From Escherichia coli (GTDB lineage: Bacteria > Pseudomonadota > Gammaproteobacteria > Enterobacterales > Enterobacteriaceae): a DNA stretch of 64,000 bases. Numbering within the stretch: position 1 is the first letter of the stretch; the number at the start of each line of letters is the position of its first letter. Shown piece after piece: positions 39,196-46,659 of the stretch. The notes below the pieces were generated by a model. That model was not told the origin of the DNA and did no database searches. It saw only the letters and a list, made by a program, of their open reading frames with translations. The position numbers and the translations under genes are program-made. Location: the NCBI GenBank assembly GCA_025336725.1, contig GCA_025336725.1_3647.1; one strand, written 5' to 3'.

Positions 39196-39465
39196 TTATC
39201 GAGGCACTCGGTGGATGATTCTAACAGTAACTGCATTCTCATTCATCAAGTAAGCATCCACATCTCTGTAAATATAAAACTTCTGCTCGCTATCAACAAC
39301 ACAAGCTACTGCCCCTTCAGAGTTGTCTTCAAAGAAGACCACTACTGCATCGCAGCTTAGTTCATGATACGACTCTCGAAGATTTACAGCAAGAGGGTTG
39401 AAATCGTCACGAAAATCTACAGTATGGGTTGGATTTACACGTTCTACAATTTTAAGTGTATACAT
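39196..39465 (-). CDS. hypothetical protein
   Basis: Track ORF 39196-39621 runs into the tRNA-Pro gene; realistic start is ATG at 39463-39465 (MYTLKIVERV...) with AAAGGAA RBS; 89 aa. Confidence 0.4.
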   Translation of the reverse strand: MYTLKIVERVNPTHTVDFRDDFNPLAVNLRESYHELSCDAVVVFFEDNSEGAVACVVDSEQKFYIYRDVDAYLMNENAVTVRIIHRVPR

Positions 39466-39508
39466 TTTTAGGATTCCTTTTGTATATATGTTTAAGGTAT
39501 GGTGAAAT

Positions 39509-39585
39509 TGGTCTCCACGGAGTGATTCGAACACTCGACCTCCTGATCCCAAATCAGGCGCTCTACCAAGCTGAGCTACGCGGAG
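39509..39585 (-). tRNA. tRNA-Pro (anticodon UGG)
   Basis: Manual cloverleaf: 7-bp acceptor (one G-U), D-stem GCTC/GAGC, anticodon loop UUUGGGA, T-loop TTCGAAT, encoded CCA; 77 nt. Confidence 0.8.
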
Positions 39586-39594
39586 TTTATAATT

Positions 39595-39669
39595 TGGTGG
39601 CCCTGGGTGGAATTGAACCACCGTCTGGCGATTATGAGTCGCTTGCTTGAACCTTCCAGCTACAGGGCC
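39595..39669 (-). tRNA. tRNA-Met or tRNA-Ile2 (anticodon CAU)
   Basis: Manual fold: acceptor GGCCCTG/CAGGGCC, anticodon loop CUCAUAA, T-arm GGTGG-TTCAATT-CCACC, encoded CCA; D-stem only 3 bp; 75 nt. Confidence 0.65.
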
Positions 39670-39670
39670 A

Positions 39671-39746
39671 TGGTGCTGATGGCAGGACTCGAACCTGCAA
39701 CCTATTGATTACAAATCAATTGCACTACCAATTGTGCTACATCAGC
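39671..39746 (-). tRNA. tRNA-Thr (anticodon UGU)
   Basis: Manual fold: perfect 7-bp acceptor GCTGATG/CATCAGC, D-stem GCAC/GTGC, anticodon stem ATTGA/TCAAT, loop UUUGUAA, T-arm GCAGG-TTCGAGT-CCTGC, CCA; 76 nt. Confidence 0.8.
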
Positions 39747-39751
39747 AAAAA

Positions 39752-39850
39752 GGTGCTAGGCGATGGAATCGAACCACCTATGTATTCAACGACTACTTCG
39801 TCTATTTTCAGGATTAAAAATCCTCGCCCTTGCCAAAGGGCCTACCTAGC
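39752..39850 (-). tRNA. aberrant tRNA-like element (Lys-UUU-like anticodon loop, ~30-nt extra segment); possible pseudo-tRNA
   Basis: Good acceptor (GCTAGGT / GCCTAGC), D-arm (GCCC-N8-GGGC) and T-arm (GGTGG-TTCGATT-CCATC), but the anticodon stem is only 4 bp (loop UUUUUAA) and ~30 nt separate it from the T-arm; no encoded CCA; 99 nt. Confidence 0.3.
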
Positions 39851-39948
39851 ATATTATGCGAATCATGCTGCTAGTCGGCGATGACGACTGTAACATTTGT
39901 TAATCCGGTTCTGCTTCCGGAGCTCGCTTAATTTCATGATCCACGATC

Positions 39949-40038
39949 TGGCAGAGAGTAATGGAATCGAACCATCATCGAGGATATCTCAACGGGACGG
40001 TTTTCAAGACCGCTTGAGCACCATGCTCCCTACTCTCT
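39949..40038 (-). tRNA. tRNA-Ser (anticodon UGA)
   Basis: Manual fold: acceptor AGAGAGT/ACTCTCT, anticodon stem-loop GCGGT-CUUGAAA-ACCGT, ~20-nt variable arm with small hairpin, T-arm GATGG-TTCGATT-CCATT, CCA; 90 nt (type II). Confidence 0.7.
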
Positions 40039-40150
40039 TTTTATAAACAACACTGATAATGACACTGATTTTCGAACAGTTAGTGACTAGTATAAACGAC
40101 GATAAACATCAATGTCATTATCTATGTTATTTATCACAAATATGTAATTT

Positions 40151-40237
40151 TGGTGGGGAGTGATGGAGTCGAACCACCCGAGTCGCAATGACAATAGATT
40201 TACAGTCTACACCGCTACCCCTACGGTATAACTCCCC
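40151..40237 (-). tRNA. tRNA-Tyr (anticodon GUA)
   Basis: Manual fold: acceptor GGGGAGT/ACTCCCC, anticodon loop CUGUAAA, 15-nt variable arm hairpin (GTC-ATTGC-GAC), T-arm GGTGG-TTCGACT-CCATC, CCA; 87 nt. Confidence 0.75.
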
Positions 40238-40241
40238 GATT

Positions 40242-40316
40242 TGGCACCCCGTACTGGACTCGAACCAGTGTCAACGGCTTAGAAGGCCGCTGCTTTATCC
40301 ACTAAGCTAACAGGGC
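40242..40316 (-). tRNA. tRNA-Arg (anticodon UCU)
   Basis: Manual fold: acceptor GCCCTGT/ACGGGGT (two G-U pairs), D-stem GCTT/AAGC, anticodon stem GCGGC/GCCGT, loop CUUCUAA, T-arm ACTGG-TTCGAGT-CCAGT, CCA; 75 nt. Confidence 0.7.
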
Positions 40317-40374
40317 ACTGGGTGGCTTTCTTTTACACCTGAGCCGCCAGAAAAGGTGGGAGACCATGTTTATA

Positions 40375-40403
40375 ATATTACACTGTTAAGCAAAGTTTGT
40401 CAA
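40375..40403 (-). promoter_or_regulatory. sigma70-like promoter upstream of the tRNA cluster
   Basis: On the minus strand: TTGACA, 17-bp spacer ending in TG, then TAATAT; about 60 nt upstream of the tRNA-Arg 5' end. Confidence 0.5.
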
Positions 40404-40412
40404 GAAAATATT

Positions 40413-40606
40413 TTAACTGTTGCTAACAGGCTGTATTTCGGTGGTAAACGGCATAAAAGGTGCTGGTTTTTCAGCCTCTTCTACTACCACCTCTTCTTCC
40501 TCTTCACCAAACATCTCATCATATTCTTCCTGCATTCTGTCTGCCTTGTCAAGGACATACTCTGCAATGCTTTGACGAATATTTTGTTTGGTTTTCGGAT
40601 CCAACA
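40413..40606 (-). CDS. hypothetical acidic protein (may extend into the assembly gap)
   Basis: ATG at 40604-40606 (MLDPKTKQNIRQ...), Glu-rich C-terminus; the track ORF extends through the N-run, which cannot be trusted. Confidence 0.35.
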
Positions 40607-40607
40607 T

Positions 40608-40708
40608 CNNNNNNNNNNNNNNNNNNNNNNNNNNNNNNNNNNNNNNNNNNNNNNNNNNNNNNNNNNNNNNNNNNNNNNNNNNNNNNNNNNNNNNNNNNNN
40701 NNNNNNNN
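40608..40708. other. assembly gap (run of N)
   Basis: Unresolved bases seen directly in the sequence. Confidence 0.99.
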
Positions 40709-40716
40709 AAACAACC

Positions 40717-42870: not shown

Positions 42871-43425
42871 TTACTCCCTGCTGTCAATATCAAAACCCAT
42901 TGCAAGGCCGTATGCCTCTTCTAGCGGTAACAGTCTCCCCCACACATCCCAACCAACATCCAACTGCCTGCCAAATAACTGTTGTGTGGTTCCGTGAGCA
43001 TGACCAAACAGTTGAACTGATCCGTGGGGCTTTCTGTTCCACGTTGCAAACTGGTAATGGCTCATACAGATCAGATTCTTGTTGTGGCGAAGCTCGTAAT
43101 AATCTACAACCTCATGACAGAACTCTTTCATAATTCTGACAGTCGTCCTTGTGTCATGGTTACCACGAACAAGAATAATATGTCCGTTCAGCATATTTAG
43201 AATTTCAGGCAGTAAGTTGTTGATATTCTTATCCTTAGTGCATGCAATGTCTCCCAAGTGGAACACGGTGTCCCATGGTGACACAATTGAGTTCCACTTG
43301 TCTATGATCCCTGCATTCATGCTATCAAGATCGTGGTTATACTGCGATCTGTGCTTTTGACAAGAATCGAACTCCATAACACGCTGGTGGAGAAAGTGTG
43401 TGTCACTTGTTATAAAATATTTCAT
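42871..43425 (-). CDS. calcineurin-like metallophosphatase (candidate RNA 3'-phosphatase)
   Basis: 184 aa; metallophosphoesterase motifs ITSDTHF, GD (HLGDIA), VRGNHD, and a His cluster (HAHG); adjacent to a P-loop kinase and divergent from an Rnl1-like ligase. Confidence 0.6.
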   Translation of the reverse strand: MKYFITSDTHFLHQRVMEFDSCQKHRSQYNHDLDSMNAGIIDKWNSIVSPWDTVFHLGDIACTKDKNINNLLPEILNMLNGHIILVRGNHDTRTTVRIMKEFCHEVVDYYELRHNKNLICMSHYQFATWNRKPHGSVQLFGHAHGTTQQLFGRQLDVGWDVWGRLLPLEEAYGLAMGFDIDSRE

Positions 43426-43432
43426 ACTATCC

Positions 43433-43843
43433 TCATTTAAGTTTAATACAGTTTTTCAGTTCACGTTCCATACGATCCACAACCCTTTCTGGAACATTGT
43501 GGATACTTTTGTTACCGTGGCGATTCTCCACCACGATTACGGTGTAATTATACCCATTACGGATCGCCATGTCAATATACTCTTGCACATGCTTTTCTTT
43601 TGTGAATGTGTTGCTTACCACGACACGGTCGTATCCCATACGCATCATATCTTCTATATTATCTTTGCACCATTTTGCAGCAAGTGTGACTTTACTTGCA
43701 TCCCAGTTGTAATTTCCATCATCGTCGTACCAGAACATGTCGTTCTCAAAATGTGGATACAGACCTTCTAAAGATAGCGCATTTGCCAGTGTTGATTTGC
43801 CAGACCCTGGTAGACCACGCACGATATACAGCATTTTAGACAT
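43433..43843 (-). CDS. polynucleotide-kinase-like P-loop kinase
   Basis: Likely start ATG 43841-43843 (MSKMLYIVRGLPGSGKST...) with GGAGGG RBS; Walker A GLPGSGKST and VVVSNT segment resemble the T4 Pnk kinase domain. Confidence 0.55.
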   Translation of the reverse strand: MSKMLYIVRGLPGSGKSTLANALSLEGLYPHFENDMFWYDDDGNYNWDASKVTLAAKWCKDNIEDMMRMGYDRVVVSNTFTKEKHVQEYIDMAIRNGYNYTVIVVENRHGNKSIHNVPERVVDRMERELKNCIKLK

Positions 43844-43961
43844 AGCGACCCTCCGTTTTAATTTTAACGACAGTATACCGTGTTCTTTTGAACATTTCAA
43901 GTGTTGACATGATGCTGTTTGTGTGGGAAGATTGTGTAACAAAATGACAAACGAGGAACGT

Positions 43962-44879
43962 ATGATGAAGTATTTTAATGCAGATGATTTAGTGGATAAA
44001 GGTCTTGTAACCAGTCGGTATTATCCAAATCTCGGATTAAAGATCTACAAATATGCCAGAAAAGTATTCTACAACAATTTATGGCATTTGTCTCCGCGTC
44101 TACTGGAGTGCCGAGGCATTGTTGTCGGTAACGAGGGGAATGTTGTGGCATGGCCCTTCACAAAAGTGTTTAACTTAGGAGAAAACTCCACCAACCTACC
44201 TGACAATAAGCTTGTGACGGCTGTAGAGAAAAAGAACGGGTTCCTTGGCGTGGTATCCTCTCATAAAGGTGAACTATTGTTCTCAACGACTGGGTCTCTT
44301 GATTCTCCATATTGTAACCTTGCAAAGGAAACCATCCAGGAGCAATGTGGCAATTTAGATCTTATCAAGAAGGTTATGGGCCATGAAAACATGACATTTA
44401 TGTTTGAAATTTGTCACCCTTCAGACCCGCATATTGTTCATGAGGATCATGGTGCGTATTTGATAGGTTGTAGATACAATGATTCTGGAATAATGCTACC
44501 AGAAGCGGCTTTAGACGGTATTGCCAAGTATCTTGGTGCAAAACGTCCTCACACTGTGCGTGAAATTCCGTTCAGCTATGCAAAAGAATTAGCTGCAGAA
44601 ACAAGAGGTGAAGGGTATATGATTCGTAAGCCTTACTACCCTTATGATCTGCAGCTGAAGATCAAGTCTCCATACTATTTGGCACGGAAGGCCGTAATGA
44701 GGGGTAAAGCTTGGAAGATTTGGGATGATGATATCTTTAAACGTGTTGACGAAGAGTTTTATGGCATGGTAAACTTCATTCGTAGCAATTACACAGAAGA
44801 TGTGTGGAACTGCCTCCTGGAGCAAGAACGTCGTGAGATACTTGACTGCTATTTCCACAACGAGGACTATATGCAATGA
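43962..44879 (+). CDS. RNA ligase, T4 Rnl1-like
   Basis: Shares LECRGI, KVFNLGEN (T4 KFFNLNEN) and nucleotidyltransferase motif I lysine VEKKNGFLG (T4 KEDG); motif IV EGYMIRK and V LKIKSP. Track start is GTG 43923; ATG 43962 has GAGGAA RBS. Confidence 0.7.
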   Translation: MMKYFNADDLVDKGLVTSRYYPNLGLKIYKYARKVFYNNLWHLSPRLLECRGIVVGNEGNVVAWPFTKVFNLGENSTNLPDNKLVTAVEKKNGFLGVVSSHKGELLFSTTGSLDSPYCNLAKETIQEQCGNLDLIKKVMGHENMTFMFEICHPSDPHIVHEDHGAYLIGCRYNDSGIMLPEAALDGIAKYLGAKRPHTVREIPFSYAKELAAETRGEGYMIRKPYYPYDLQLKIKSPYYLARKAVMRGKAWKIWDDDIFKRVDEEFYGMVNFIRSNYTEDVWNCLLEQERREILDCYFHNEDYMQ

Positions 44880-44924
44880 AGAAGTGGAAAGTTCTTTTTA
44901 ATCATTCCAGCTTAAGGGAGCTGT

Positions 44925-45533
44925 ATGAAACTTGTGCATGGTGTTGGTGTTAATGATGCAGACTATCCTGTCAGGGTTTTAGACAAGGATACCGGAAAGA
45001 GAATCATGTGTCCTTTTTATATGACATGGTCAAATATGCTAGGAAGGTGCTACCTTAAAAACAAGAAATTTGAAGCTTATGCTATGGTAGAAGTTTGTGA
45101 AGAATGGAAAATCTTCAGCAACTTTAAGCGCTGGATGGAAAAACAAGATTGGCGGGATAAATTTTTAGATAAAGATATCCTGTTTGAAAATAATCTTATA
45201 TACTGTCCAGAAGCGTGTATTTTTGTTCCTCGTGAAATAAACAACTTCTTTGTAGCAAGGGTACCACAAAGAGGGGAGTGTTTGATGGGAGTAAGAAGAA
45301 AAGGCCCATCTTTTGCTGCCTATTGCAAAGATGGGGTTAATGACACACAGGTTTATCTTGGAACCTTTCCCACGCAGATTGAGGCACATATGAAATACTT
45401 GGAATGCAAACTGCAACTTCTTAGAGACTTGATTAGAACTGTAGATGACAGTAGGTTGCTATTAGGATTACGAAGAATTGAGAGTAAGATAGTTTTAGCT
45501 TTATCTTCAAAAACACCGATAGAAAATTTTTAG
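44925..45533 (+). CDS. homing-endonuclease-like protein with AP2-type DNA-binding domain
   Basis: 202 aa; N-terminal YMTWSNMLGRCY...EAYAMVEVCEEW motif common to phage endonuclease-associated domains; C-terminal VYLGTFPTQIEAHMKY AP2-like segment. Confidence 0.45.
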   Translation: MKLVHGVGVNDADYPVRVLDKDTGKRIMCPFYMTWSNMLGRCYLKNKKFEAYAMVEVCEEWKIFSNFKRWMEKQDWRDKFLDKDILFENNLIYCPEACIFVPREINNFFVARVPQRGECLMGVRRKGPSFAAYCKDGVNDTQVYLGTFPTQIEAHMKYLECKLQLLRDLIRTVDDSRLLLGLRRIESKIVLALSSKTPIENF

Positions 45534-45541
45534 AGGGATGT

Positions 45542-45889
45542 ATGAAAGTCTGGATAGATGATTTGCGTAACCCAGCTGATTACGGACAGGCAGATGCAGT
45601 TTGGTTTAAAACTTCACAAGAGGCTATGGAGTTTCTCAATACTCCTGCTAAAATGTATCGAAGAGTGACAGAGTGGTTTTTTGACCACGATTTGGGTGAA
45701 GACTCTGATCAAGACGGGTATGCTGTTTTATTGCGCCTGGAAGAGCTATTTGTATTTGGCAAGCCACCTGTTGTTGACAACGTGAAGATTTTCGTGCATA
45801 CTTCTAACCCATCAGCAGCTCGTAAATTTATGCTTGCTGCAGATTCGTTCAGAAAGTTTGGAATAGAGATCAAACAGAACATTTACTGA
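45542..45889 (+). CDS. hypothetical protein
   Basis: 115 aa ORF; conserved-looking Asp-rich motifs (WIDDLRNP, DHDLGEDSDQDG); function unknown. Confidence 0.4.
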   Translation: MKVWIDDLRNPADYGQADAVWFKTSQEAMEFLNTPAKMYRRVTEWFFDHDLGEDSDQDGYAVLLRLEELFVFGKPPVVDNVKIFVHTSNPSAARKFMLAADSFRKFGIEIKQNIY

Positions 45890-45897
45890 GGACACCT

Positions 45898-46659
45898 ATG
45901 CGACGACTGATTATTATCTCTGGTGCTGGCTTGAGTGCTGAATCCGGTATCCCCACCTTTCGATCTGGTAGCACTGCAATGTGGGAGAATTTCAGCATCG
46001 ATGAGGTGTGTAACATCCACACCTTTGCCAAGAACTACTATAAGGTGCATGACTTTTACAATGCACGGCGTGTAGCTCTGGGTAGTGTTGAGCCCAATCT
46101 TGCACATCTCCGGATCGCCGAGTGGTATTCTCGCTGGTCTGGTCGTGTAATCAACCTGACCACCAATGTAGATGATTTGCTGGAGCGTGCTGGTGTAAAA
46201 CATGAAGATATTTTACATGTCCACGGGTATTTGCCAGAAATAGTCTATGAGGACGATGAAGGAAGTAATGTCATTAAAGACGTTGGGTATTCGGAGGTAG
46301 ATGCAGGAGAGTATATTTGGGTTAAGCCTAATGTGGTATTCTTCGGAGAAGTTGCTCCAAAGTACACAGACATGTATGACCTATTGACTTCTCTGACAAG
46401 CAATGATATGGTTATCCTTGTAGGGTGCTCAAACACAGTTATCAATTTTAACTGGGAGCTGTTCCCTGCCTGTAACAAGGGCACTAAGCTGTTGATTGTT
46501 AACAAATACGACTCACAGCATTTGGAGGAGAATGGCATTTCACGTAGTGACATTTACCAGTATGAGGATCGCGGCATTCCTGTTTGGTTTAACGGGGCGG
46601 TTGACGCTTTCTCTGATAAAACATTTATTGAAACTGTAGAAAACTTCATGGAACTTTAA
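45898..46659 (+). CDS. Sir2 (sirtuin)-family NAD-binding protein
   Basis: 253 aa; sirtuin Rossmann motif GAGLSAESGIPTFRSG, catalytic-type His (ILHVHGY), VVFFGE and LVGCSNTV motifs; no obvious Zn-ribbon Cys pairs. Confidence 0.7.
   Translation: MRRLIIISGAGLSAESGIPTFRSGSTAMWENFSIDEVCNIHTFAKNYYKVHDFYNARRVALGSVEPNLAHLRIAEWYSRWSGRVINLTTNVDDLLERAGVKHEDILHVHGYLPEIVYEDDEGSNVIKDVGYSEVDAGEYIWVKPNVVFFGEVAPKYTDMYDLLTSLTSNDMVILVGCSNTVINFNWELFPACNKGTKLLIVNKYDSQHLEENGISRSDIYQYEDRGIPVWFNGAVDAFSDKTFIETVENFMEL

Follow-up and report, generated by a model that had tools for sequence, protein, structure and literature searches.

The window analysed here, a 64,000-nucleotide (nt) stretch of DNA from an Escherichia coli assembly (GenBank GCA_025336725.1, contig GCA_025336725.1_3647.1), belongs to an rV5-like Vequintavirus myovirus. 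Its tRNA array contains a 99-nt element on the minus strand (39850 to 39752). On comparative sequence evidence, this element represents, for the rV5 lineage, a conserved family of tRNA-shaped RNAs that enterobacterial phages carry in their tRNA arrays. We put at roughly 0.9 the probability that it is not a remnant but a conserved, functional tRNA-like RNA of non-canonical type. What is new here is the family itself, an apparently non-decoding type of tRNA-like RNA within phage tRNA arrays that is well defined comparatively. Searches of the literature on rV5 and Vequintavirinae tRNAs, noncanonical phage tRNAs and tRNA-like anti-defence RNAs yielded no description of this RNA, and the element goes unmentioned in the first rV5 genome paper, where six tRNAs are listed (PMC3606486).

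The region around the element (39400-40450) shares 93-94% identity with many rV5-like phages. ARAGORN at default settings finds six tRNA genes in the window, all on the minus strand and in the transcription order Arg(UCU), Tyr(GUA), Ser(UGA), a gap, Thr(UGU), Met(CAU) and Pro(UGG). The element occupies this gap, with tRNA-Ser(UGA) (39949..40038) as its upstream neighbor in the same array and tRNA-Thr(UGU) (39671..39746) lying 5 nt downstream. A covariance model of the family, R1, which was built from 28 distinct members, places the element at 39850-39751 with a score of 104.5 bits (E = 5e-23) and aligns it to all 108 model positions. The family signature consists of A8, a D-arm of the form G-NNN-UUUG-K-Y-AA-NNN-C, a hairpin of 14-16 nt, GAAAA, a variable hairpin, AUACAUA, a T-arm GGYGGUUMGAUUCCRYC and a 7-base-pair (bp) acceptor, and all of its invariant columns are present in the window copy.

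Read from its 5′ end at 39850, with every part on the minus strand, the RNA begins with the acceptor strand GCUAGGU (nt 1-7, 39844..39850), which pairs with GCCUAGC (nt 90-96, 39755..39761) to form 7 bp, including U7·G66; this assignment is supported by both sequence and covariation. A8 and G9 join the acceptor to the D-arm GCCCUU-UGGC-AAGGGC (nt 10-25, 39826..39841), in which three pairs covary (C-G to G-C or A-U) and which can be drawn either as 4 bp with an 8-nt loop or as 6 bp with a 4-nt loop. G26 separates the D-arm from an anticodon-like hairpin, AGGA-UUUUUAA-UCCU (nt 27-41, 39810..39824), of 15 nt compared to the canonical 17, whose outer pairs are kept and covary from A-U to G-C. This hairpin, AGGAUUUUUAAUCCU, can be read as 4 bp closing the loop UUUUUAA, with anticodon UUU, U33 and A37, but the minimum-free-energy fold instead gives 6 bp and a UUU triloop. 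Between the hairpin and the T-stem lie 31 nt in the window copy (31-41 nt across the family), made up of a 5′ linker GAAAAUA (nt 42-48, 39803..39809), a variable-region hairpin GACGA-AGUAG-UCGUU (nt 49-63, 39788..39802) and a 3′ linker GAAUACAUA (nt 64-72, 39779..39787). The GAAAA of the first linker is the same in 31 of 32 distinct sequences, Salmonella phage UTK0002 having GUAAA, and the AUACAUA of the second is invariant. The T-arm GGUGG-UUCGAUU-CCAUC (nt 73-89, 39762..39778) is paired in 100% of cells, with one compensatory pair and with G-U and G-C alternating at 50:64. The RNA closes with the discriminator A73 followed by CC (39752..39754); A76 is not encoded, and UUUUU separates this end from tRNA-Thr. 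The bases of the elbow are G19 (39833) in the D-loop and C56 (39771) in the T-loop, and bases 8 and 14 are A and U rather than the usual U and A of tRNAs. The fold energy of −33.8 kcal/mol (z = −3.45) was reached by none of 200 shuffled sequences. Every descriptive point of the sequence-only reading is thereby confirmed: a 99-nt element with good acceptor, D- and T-arms between tRNA-Thr and tRNA-Ser, a 4-bp anticodon stem with loop UUUUUAA (now one of two possible drawings), about 30 extra nt before the T-arm, and the lack of an encoded CCA, which all six neighboring tRNAs possess.

Standard tRNA and RNA models gave no clean canonical fold for this sequence, a fold that would have refuted the sequence-only reading. 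An ordinary tRNA overlooked in that reading is ruled out, since neither ARAGORN at default settings nor the tRNA model of Rfam makes a call at the element. Rfam 15 showed no tRNA (RF00005) match at the site and no family covering it, and at E values up to 10 neither transfer-messenger RNA (tmRNA) nor YrlA was matched there; ARAGORN at default settings found no tmRNA anywhere in the window. At a lowered threshold ARAGORN returned the irregular call 'tRNA-?(Asp|Gly)(atcc)', that is, a four-base anticodon, and with intron search a forced fit to 'tRNA-Leu(taa) plus 17-nt intron'. The sole Rfam match at the site was to tRNA-Sec (RF01852), at 29.5 bits compared to a gathering score of 47. Bacterial tRNA-Sec has an 8/5 acceptor/T arrangement, and we rejected this assignment because the element has 7/5, because the score falls below the gathering value, and because UCA is found in only some lineages of the family and then together with A33. 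The eighth acceptor pair that tRNA-Sec needs would be A·C, a mismatch flagged by cmscan, and the anticodon here is UUU. Pairs U14-A21 and U15-A20 could lengthen the D-stem to a tRNA-Sec-like 6 bp; these bases are invariant, so covariation speaks neither for nor against this extension. GenBank labels for the same gene vary widely, from tRNA-Lys, tRNA-OTHER, tRNA-TERM (suppressor) and tRNA-???(atcc) to hypothetical protein or no label at all.

Database searches showed that the element is widespread among phages of enterobacterial hosts. An rV5-type query matched 148 GenBank records, of which about 136 are rV5-like and the remainder match only a lambda-like spacer, and a Seunavirus-type query matched a further 74 records, with Seunavirus, Mydovirus, Henunavirus and Avunavirus phages reported as carriers of homologues. 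Twelve IMG/VR contigs and 21 metagenome contigs also contain the element. Seunavirus copies are found in Salmonella, Cronobacter and Enterobacter phages, Mydovirus copies in Klebsiella, Raoultella and Proteus phages, and Henunavirus copies in Erwinia phages, where they are annotated "tRNA-TERM, suppressor". One copy is carried by an N4-like member of the Schitoviridae, Salmonella phage UTK0002, between tRNA-Ser and tRNA-Asn. In Avunavirus (Av-05, 19-1-2) the element is about 92% identical to the rV5 type while the flanks are unalignable, only query positions 9-106 being aligned, which indicates that the homologues are not recent copies of one sequence. Each genome carries a single copy, and copies were found only within tRNA arrays.

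Model R1 separates the family cleanly from tRNAs, scoring its members at 91-116 bits and genuine tRNAs at no more than 29 bits; the next-best matches after the members are Tyr, Ser, Leu and Thr tRNAs. A pattern drawn from the 5′ half alone and a pattern drawn from the 3′ half recovered the same 12 IMG/VR contigs, indicating both that the two conserved halves always travel together and that the invariance of AUACAUA is not an effect of ascertainment alone. Nothing similar was found in 5,426 complete E. coli genomes, and the 3′ pattern was absent from 185,579 species genomes of bacteria and archaea; an origin from a host tRNA or a prophage was rejected on these grounds. No member was detected in Pectobacterium phages by BLAST, or within the 4-kilobase (kb) flanks fetched on each side in distant phages that share a neighboring tail-fiber-like gene (L056-L061).

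The conservation of the family is that of a folded RNA. In a MAFFT alignment of the 28 distinct members, 99.8% of the cells in 21 modelled pairs are standard pairs and 10 of these 21 pairs show double changes, and sliding the 3′ partners by 1-3 columns as a control lowers pairing to 34-51%. A model-based alignment of 32 distinct sequences, from at least five genera and two phage families, has 704 of 704 cells paired over 22 pairs; being fitted to the model, this alignment is biased towards the structure, but its result agrees with that from MAFFT. Compensatory changes affect 11 of the 22 pairs: five of the seven acceptor pairs (all acceptor cells being paired), three in the D-stem, one in the anticodon-like stem, one in the T-stem and the elbow pair 19:56. 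The elbow is G:C in 21 of the 32 sequences and U:A in the other 11, with zero exceptions, such that a D-loop UGGC goes with a T-loop UUCGAUU in 21 sequences and UGUC with UUAGAUU in 11. G-U alternates with G-C or A-U at 7:66, 50:64 and 1:72; on the opposite strand these G-U pairs would be A·C, indicating that the selected molecule is the tRNA-sense RNA. Scaffold identity between genera, with the variable hairpin excluded, ranges from 0.74 to 0.96, compared to 0.63 to 0.91 for the adjacent genuine tRNA-Thr. By these measures the element is as constrained as a working tRNA, and selection holds the acceptor, D-arm, T-arm and elbow pair, the parts that make up the L-shaped tRNA body, as well as the two single-stranded linkers.

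This constraint bears directly on the proposal that the element is an inert remnant, either a decaying tRNA-Lys pseudogene or an interrupted tRNA. The failure of standard tRNA predictors, the absence of the encoded CCA that all six neighbors have, and the tRNA-Leu(taa) plus 17-nt intron offered by ARAGORN would all fit a remnant. However, a decaying tRNA-Lys, as suggested by the sequence-only reading, is ruled out because the constraint equals that on the neighboring tRNA-Thr, and none of the marks of a pseudogene, namely relaxed constraint, broken pairs and lack of wide conservation, is seen. Complete pairing with 11 compensatory pairs extends over five genera and a second phage family, and a descent from tRNA-Lys is further countered by the relatives in other genera, which never carry a Lys anticodon. 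With the extra sequence placed in the variable region of all members and the intron fit broken in Av-05 (see below), we regard any inert remnant as exceedingly improbable.

The extra nucleotides themselves form an old feature of the family, a covarying hairpin set between conserved linkers, and not a small intervening sequence as had been suggested. In Av-05 the pair A30-U59 demanded by the intron model becomes A·C, whereas pair 53:59 of the hairpin switches from A-U to G-C; an intron was rejected because the ARAGORN fit breaks in this phage and because the extra nt lie in the variable region of all members and not in the anticodon loop. The stem also covaries among the Henunavirus, metagenome and Mydovirus types, where it reads GUC/GAC, GCG/CGC or GCC/GGC. 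Unrelated hairpins of 3-8 bp fill the variable slot in other genera, and wholly unrelated hairpins occur on otherwise identical scaffolds (L021, L024, L026 and L013). The Henunavirus/Mydovirus-type hairpin carries a conserved 14-nt loop, GAAYUAACAGUACG. Two tertiary interactions of this region were considered and dropped. Kissing between the anticodon-like and variable-hairpin loops looked covarying for UCCA/UGGA (Seunavirus, L024) and GCCA/UGGC (L026), but proved not to be general, as UGGA lies inside a stem in KE22 and a complement is lacking in the Mydovirus and Henunavirus types. Pairing of the UUUUU loop with the GAAAA linker in an H-type pseudoknot was abandoned because the U-run is missing from other lineages, although 31 of 32 sequences keep GAAAA. 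As a separate observation, an HNH homing-endonuclease gene sits exactly between tRNA-Thr and the element in Raoultella phage Ro1 (L015 1672-2064), and endonuclease-driven gene conversion could explain a mosaic exchange of the variable hairpin.

In contrast to the scaffold, the anticodon-like hairpin is conserved only in size, being 14-16 nt in every member, 1-3 nt below the canonical 17, and no part of the RNA varies more than its loop. The loop is UUUUUAA in rV5-like phages and UUUAUAA in Avunavirus; CAUCAAA or UAUCAAA, with A33 in place of U33, in Henunavirus, the N4-like phage and some metagenome contigs; GUGAUA in one metagenome contig; and, in Seunavirus and Mydovirus, a 6-nt loop on a 5-bp stem that reads CAUCCA, CCUCCA, CCGCCA, CUUCCA, CAGCCA or CCACCA, so that six different dinucleotides are found at loop positions 2-3 on near-identical scaffolds. 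The apparent anticodon across the family is UUU, UAU, UCA or none. Thus the acceptor/T-arm and elbow are those of a canonical tRNA, but a conserved 5-bp, 7-nt anticodon arm and a 4-5-nt variable loop are lacking. Because the Lys-like loop is confined to the rV5 genus and most other loops lack U33 or the 7-nt length, the family is probably not a decoder in the ordinary sense.

The 3′ end is likewise lineage-dependent. U73-CCA is encoded in 23 of the 32 distinct sequences, and the ends without CCA are ACC or ACA in rV5-like phages and UAC or CAC in Avunavirus (C74 to A). The lack of CCA that was noted from the window alone is therefore real, yet confined to these two lineages. The CCA-adding enzyme of E. 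coli is able to restore such an end, and T4 tRNAs without CCA are known. The Lys-like loop, A73 and missing CCA are traits of the rV5 lineage, the last shared with Avunavirus, and not traits of the family. A tRNA-Gly ancestry is only suggestive: the loops of the form CNNCCA are readable as NCC anticodons, and U73, G1:C72 and C2:G71 would agree, but the fit is poor, with a 3:70 pair that does not match expectation, a position 33 that is not U and a loop of 6 nt.

These lineage traits also raise the possibility that the rV5 scaffold was recruited as an unconventional decoder, a nuclease-resistant tRNA-Lys(UUU), with the Henunavirus copy acting as a UGA suppressor. The anticodon bases U34, U35 and U36 and A73 are the main identity elements of E. 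coli lysyl-tRNA synthetase, and only the rV5 lineage joins anticodon UUU, U33, A37 and A73, the ancestral discriminator being U. In addition, the window encodes no other tRNA-Lys detectable by ARAGORN, several GenBank records call the element tRNA-Lys or tRNA-TERM, and there is a precedent in phage T5, which needs its own resistant tRNA-Lys to escape the PARIS defense (PMC12409363). Nevertheless, the 4-bp anticodon stem, the 31-nt variable region, A8 and U14 speak against decoding, and the element is recognized neither by ARAGORN (default settings) nor by the tRNA model of Rfam. Sister lineages place UAU or 6-nt loops on the same scaffold, indicating that the scaffold is kept for a reason other than decoding; Henunavirus-type loops have A33; and the metagenomic array L046 holds the element together with an ordinary tRNA-Lys(UUU). 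We therefore consider decoding very unlikely. Separately, the metagenomic arrays with a CAUCAAA-type element also encode a CUA tRNA (L046 2791-2865, L036 7862-7934), called 'Pyl' by ARAGORN, which could be an amber suppressor.

A second lineage-specific account, in line with the decoy for an anticodon nuclease proposed by the sequence-only reading, holds that the rV5/Avunavirus hairpin was remodelled to imitate the tRNA-Lys(UUU) arm and binds AriB or PrrC alongside the repair genes. The window hairpin, GA-UUUUUAA-UC, agrees at 10 of 11 positions with the anticodon region of E. coli tRNA-Lys, which we take to be GA-CUUUUAA-UC. PrrC prefers a modified wobble base, which counts against a decoy for this enzyme. 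AriB, the PARIS effector, cuts E. coli tRNA-Lys and tRNA-Thr at U36AAUC/A41 (the slash marking the cut) and contacts U16 (PMC12409363). Within the family, rV5 and Avunavirus, the lineages that infect E. coli, are the sole carriers of the UAAUC motif. The D-loop of the element has U16, and tRNA-Thr(UGU), of the other prime AriB target type, adjoins the element. The RNA-repair module lies 3-5 kb away, as the earlier reading had stated. UAAUCC is kept in Avunavirus although the middle anticodon base differs. The C that follows the motif in these hairpins (U-A-A-U-C-C) is the base found in tRNA-Asn, a minor AriB target, and in the Mut2 substitution of A41 by C, which reduces AriB cleavage; the resistant tRNA-Lys of T5 also has C41 (PMC12409363). 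These coincidences provide a weak lead towards a putative AriB decoy.

Several points weigh against such a decoy. The rV5 and Avunavirus hairpins are one base apart, so the shared motif may reflect common ancestry; we estimate that a random 7-nt loop has about a 1 in 16 chance of resembling that of a tRNA, and only one of some 4-5 independent lineages shows such a loop; and a stem that is one pair short makes the distance from loop to body unlike that of real tRNA-Lys. For AriB the anticodon arm alone does not suffice, as contacts beyond it are required too (PMC12409363). We regard this account as distinctly unlikely. More generally, tRNA mimicry is the part of the decoy idea that is preferred here, but mimicry of one anticodon is not the function of the family, the loop being its least conserved part. 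Apart from the element, the phage tRNA-Thr(UGU) has U36-A-A-U-C-A41, identical to the AriB motif, and by that criterion is not obviously a resistant variant.

The array context of the element is constant in form and variable in partner. A tRNA adjoins the element at a distance of 2-5 nt on one side (pattern CCA-AU-G1), and the spacer on the opposite side is long. In rV5-like phages tRNA-Thr begins 5 nt downstream of the element. The remaining Vequintavirinae genera have the element behind tRNA-Thr (directly so in Avunavirus) or behind an odd tRNA that itself comes after tRNA-Thr; in L036, L046 and L035 it follows tRNA-Leu(UAA), and in UTK0002 it follows tRNA-Ser. Because the Schitoviridae copy has only tRNA genes around it and no protein gene alongside, any protein partner is probably encoded by the host and common to Enterobacterales. 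As a side observation, Seunavirus and Mydovirus phages have another irregular tRNA-like gene, about 75 nt long and placed between tRNA-Thr and the element (L013 1669-1743, L016 1670-1745, L064 325-398, L066 324-398, L063 323-398), with no counterpart in the window. This gene has a normal cloverleaf body and CCA, and anticodon loops of 6-8 nt that mostly lack U33 and differ between phages; it is labelled Ser, Ile, Arg or '???' in the records.

The close spacing to a tRNA in every lineage would fit a cis-acting module, a tRNA shape that serves only as a handle for RNase P and RNase Z or as a protective end for the array transcript, for instance within a dimeric precursor with tRNA-Thr, the excised RNA having no function of its own. 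Consistent with this, the covarying parts (acceptor/T-arm and elbow) are those that RNase P reads. Phage V18 (L007 2501-2597), moreover, is viable although a natural deletion has destroyed its copy of the element: tRNA-Ser is gone, and the 5′ half of tRNA-Tyr runs directly into the final 47 nt of the element. On the other hand, ordinary tRNAs of the same arrays are processed without a helper, and the element remains constant although it adjoins different tRNAs (Thr, Leu, Ser or the odd tRNA) and lies upstream of its neighbor in rV5 but downstream of it in other phages. A handle would also leave unexplained the invariance of the D-arm, of the GAAAA and AUACAUA linkers and of the hairpin length, as well as the encoded U73-CCA in 23 of 32 sequences. 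A purely cis-acting role thus seems unlikely, but deserves consideration.

We favor instead, tentatively and with somewhat less than even confidence, a mechanism in which the element acts as a tRNA mimic or bait. The RNA would be transcribed together with the tRNA array and excised by RNase P with 3′ trimming, like the adjacent tRNAs, and its mature 3′ end would be CCA, encoded in most lineages and completed by the host CCA-adding enzyme in rV5 and Avunavirus. It would not decode any codon; the mimic would engage an Enterobacterales-wide host protein that reads the acceptor, T-arm and elbow, and its likeliest use would be as bait or competitor against a tRNA-targeting host defense or toxin. 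Such a role appears the most likely because many E. coli defenses cleave tRNAs, as do AriB of PARIS (PMC12409363, PMC11464382) and retron Eco2 (PMC12916289), the latter defending against Vequintavirinae (PMC12916289); because phage tRNAs counter tRNA-cutting defenses (PMC11555353, PMC11464382); and because an rV5-like phage is known to use an RNA mimic (PMC3475682).

Not all observations sit easily with this mechanism. Bait for an anticodon nuclease should keep its anticodon loop, and the loop of the family is not conserved, so that the target would need to read the tRNA body or the 3′ end. Simple mimicry does not account for the conservation of the linkers or for the requirement of a variable hairpin. 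The mutated CCA in rV5 and Avunavirus would be odd if the 3′ end were central, though host enzymes can rebuild it, and the V18 deletion indicates that the element, tRNA-Tyr and tRNA-Ser are dispensable at least on the isolation host of this phage. The mimic reading could be extended to combine family and lineage: the family would be a new class of phage counter-defense RNA, a horizontally mobile, non-decoding tRNA mimic of tRNA arrays that is matured like a tRNA and that titrates or blocks a tRNA-attacking host enzyme by way of the tRNA body or 3′ end, and in rV5 and Avunavirus its hairpin would have been re-tailored (UAAUC, U16, A73) for AriB or PrrC. Taken as a whole, this composite is speculative and more apt to be wrong than right by a wide measure.

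Other features of the window lie close to the element. The RNA-repair module comprises genes for a metallophosphoesterase (42871-43425, minus strand), a P-loop kinase (43433-43942, minus strand) and a T4 Rnl1-type RNA ligase (43923-44879, plus strand), whose homologues in phage DrSchubert are annotated as phosphoesterase, polynucleotide kinase and RNA ligase. The cluster as a whole (42871-46659) exceeds kinase, phosphatase and ligase, adding a cyclic-phosphate-processing receiver domain protein (45542-45889, plus strand) and a SIR2-family protein (45898-46659), with an unassigned 202-amino-acid open reading frame (44925-45533) between the ligase and receiver-domain genes. Within the array, the CAU tRNA (39595-39669) is called Met by ARAGORN, but the BASEL record for its homologue gives tRNA-Ile reading AUA, which would be of the lysidine type. 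Just upstream of the array, in or beside an open reading frame, there is a run of 100 N (40610-40709), either a mask or an assembly gap.

The spacer between tRNA-Ser and the element (39866-39933) contains a block of about 60 nt that is about 84% identical among rV5-like phages, lambda (44866-44934; L004 1201-1269), P1-like P7 (72368-72432; L071 1201-1265) and D6, and that reads AAUUAAGCGA..CCGGAAGCAGAACCGGAU..CAAAUG.UACAG.CGUCAUCGCCG.C.AGC. The block lies between orf-64 and S in lambda and between tRNA-Thr/Asn and terB in P7, and it is always oriented with the local tRNAs or the late transcript. The orf-64/S slot of lambda is presumably the place of the tRNA genes in Stx phages. The block had no match in Rfam, and it may be a boundary or RNA element of mobile tRNA cassettes.

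Phage tRNA arrays are increasingly re-read as countermeasures to immunity that cuts or modifies tRNAs. The family described here would add to this picture an array member that keeps the features recognized by processing and tRNA-binding proteins (acceptor stem, elbow and usually CCA), no longer serves decoding, and has passed from one phage family to an unrelated one. Inconsistent labels for this gene distort and inflate tRNA counts and imply suppressor tRNAs without proof, which a family covariance model would fix. The BASEL collection, whose phages can be grown on E. coli K-12, includes members, and the family offers a tractable route to the role of non-decoding tRNA mimics in infection, a question that dates from RNAs C and D of phage T4.

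Comparison with known systems shows where the element resembles and departs from them. In kind, the closest analogues are T4 rnaC and rnaD (species 1 and 2 RNAs), which like the element encode non-tRNA RNAs in a phage tRNA cluster; they are stable, lie at the end of the cluster, and were still described as of unknown function in 2022 (PMC9697503). Near its 3′ end rnaC has a T-arm-like CCGGG-UUCGAAU-CCCGG. No homology to the family was detected, however: with filters off, R1 scored rnaC at 9.2 bits (E = 0.31) and did not match the sense strand of rnaD. The two T4 RNAs are longer (139 and 119 nt) and their predicted minimum-free-energy folds lack a full cloverleaf, unlike the element family, which keeps the acceptor, D- and T-arms, the elbow and mostly U73-CCA. 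With class II tRNAs and tRNA-Sec the element shares a 7-bp acceptor, a 5-bp T-arm with a UUCGAUU loop, a GG D-arm, the elbow and an extra hairpin; its D-arm could also be drawn with the 6-bp stem and 4-nt loop of tRNA-Sec. It differs from them in its 14-16-nt anticodon arm, in a loop conserved in neither length nor sequence, and in an extra hairpin set off from both stems by conserved single strands of 7-9 nt. Bacillus cereus tRNA-Other and the tRNA-like domains of YrlA and tmRNA are tRNA-shaped and use tRNA enzymes or partners without ordinary decoding; compared to tmRNA and YrlA, the element has no tag reading frame or Ro-binding stem and, unlike their domains, keeps the full four-arm cloverleaf. 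For RNA mimicry by phages there is a precedent in the same subfamily, the pseudo-ToxI of the rV5-like Pectobacterium phage PhiTE, which acts against the host abortive infection system ToxIN (PMC3475682); it mimics a repetitive antitoxin RNA and has no relation to the element in sequence or structure. Finally, the T5 tRNA-Lys, tRNA-Thr and tRNA-Asn that act against PARIS and the tRNA-Tyr that acts against retron Eco7 are likewise encoded in the tRNA array of an E. coli phage, and T5 tRNA-Lys, unlike host tRNA-Lys, shares with the element a C at position 41 (PMC12409363). The T5 tRNAs, however, are canonical decoders with few point changes, whereas the element has a shortened anticodon arm on a family scaffold whose anticodon is not conserved.

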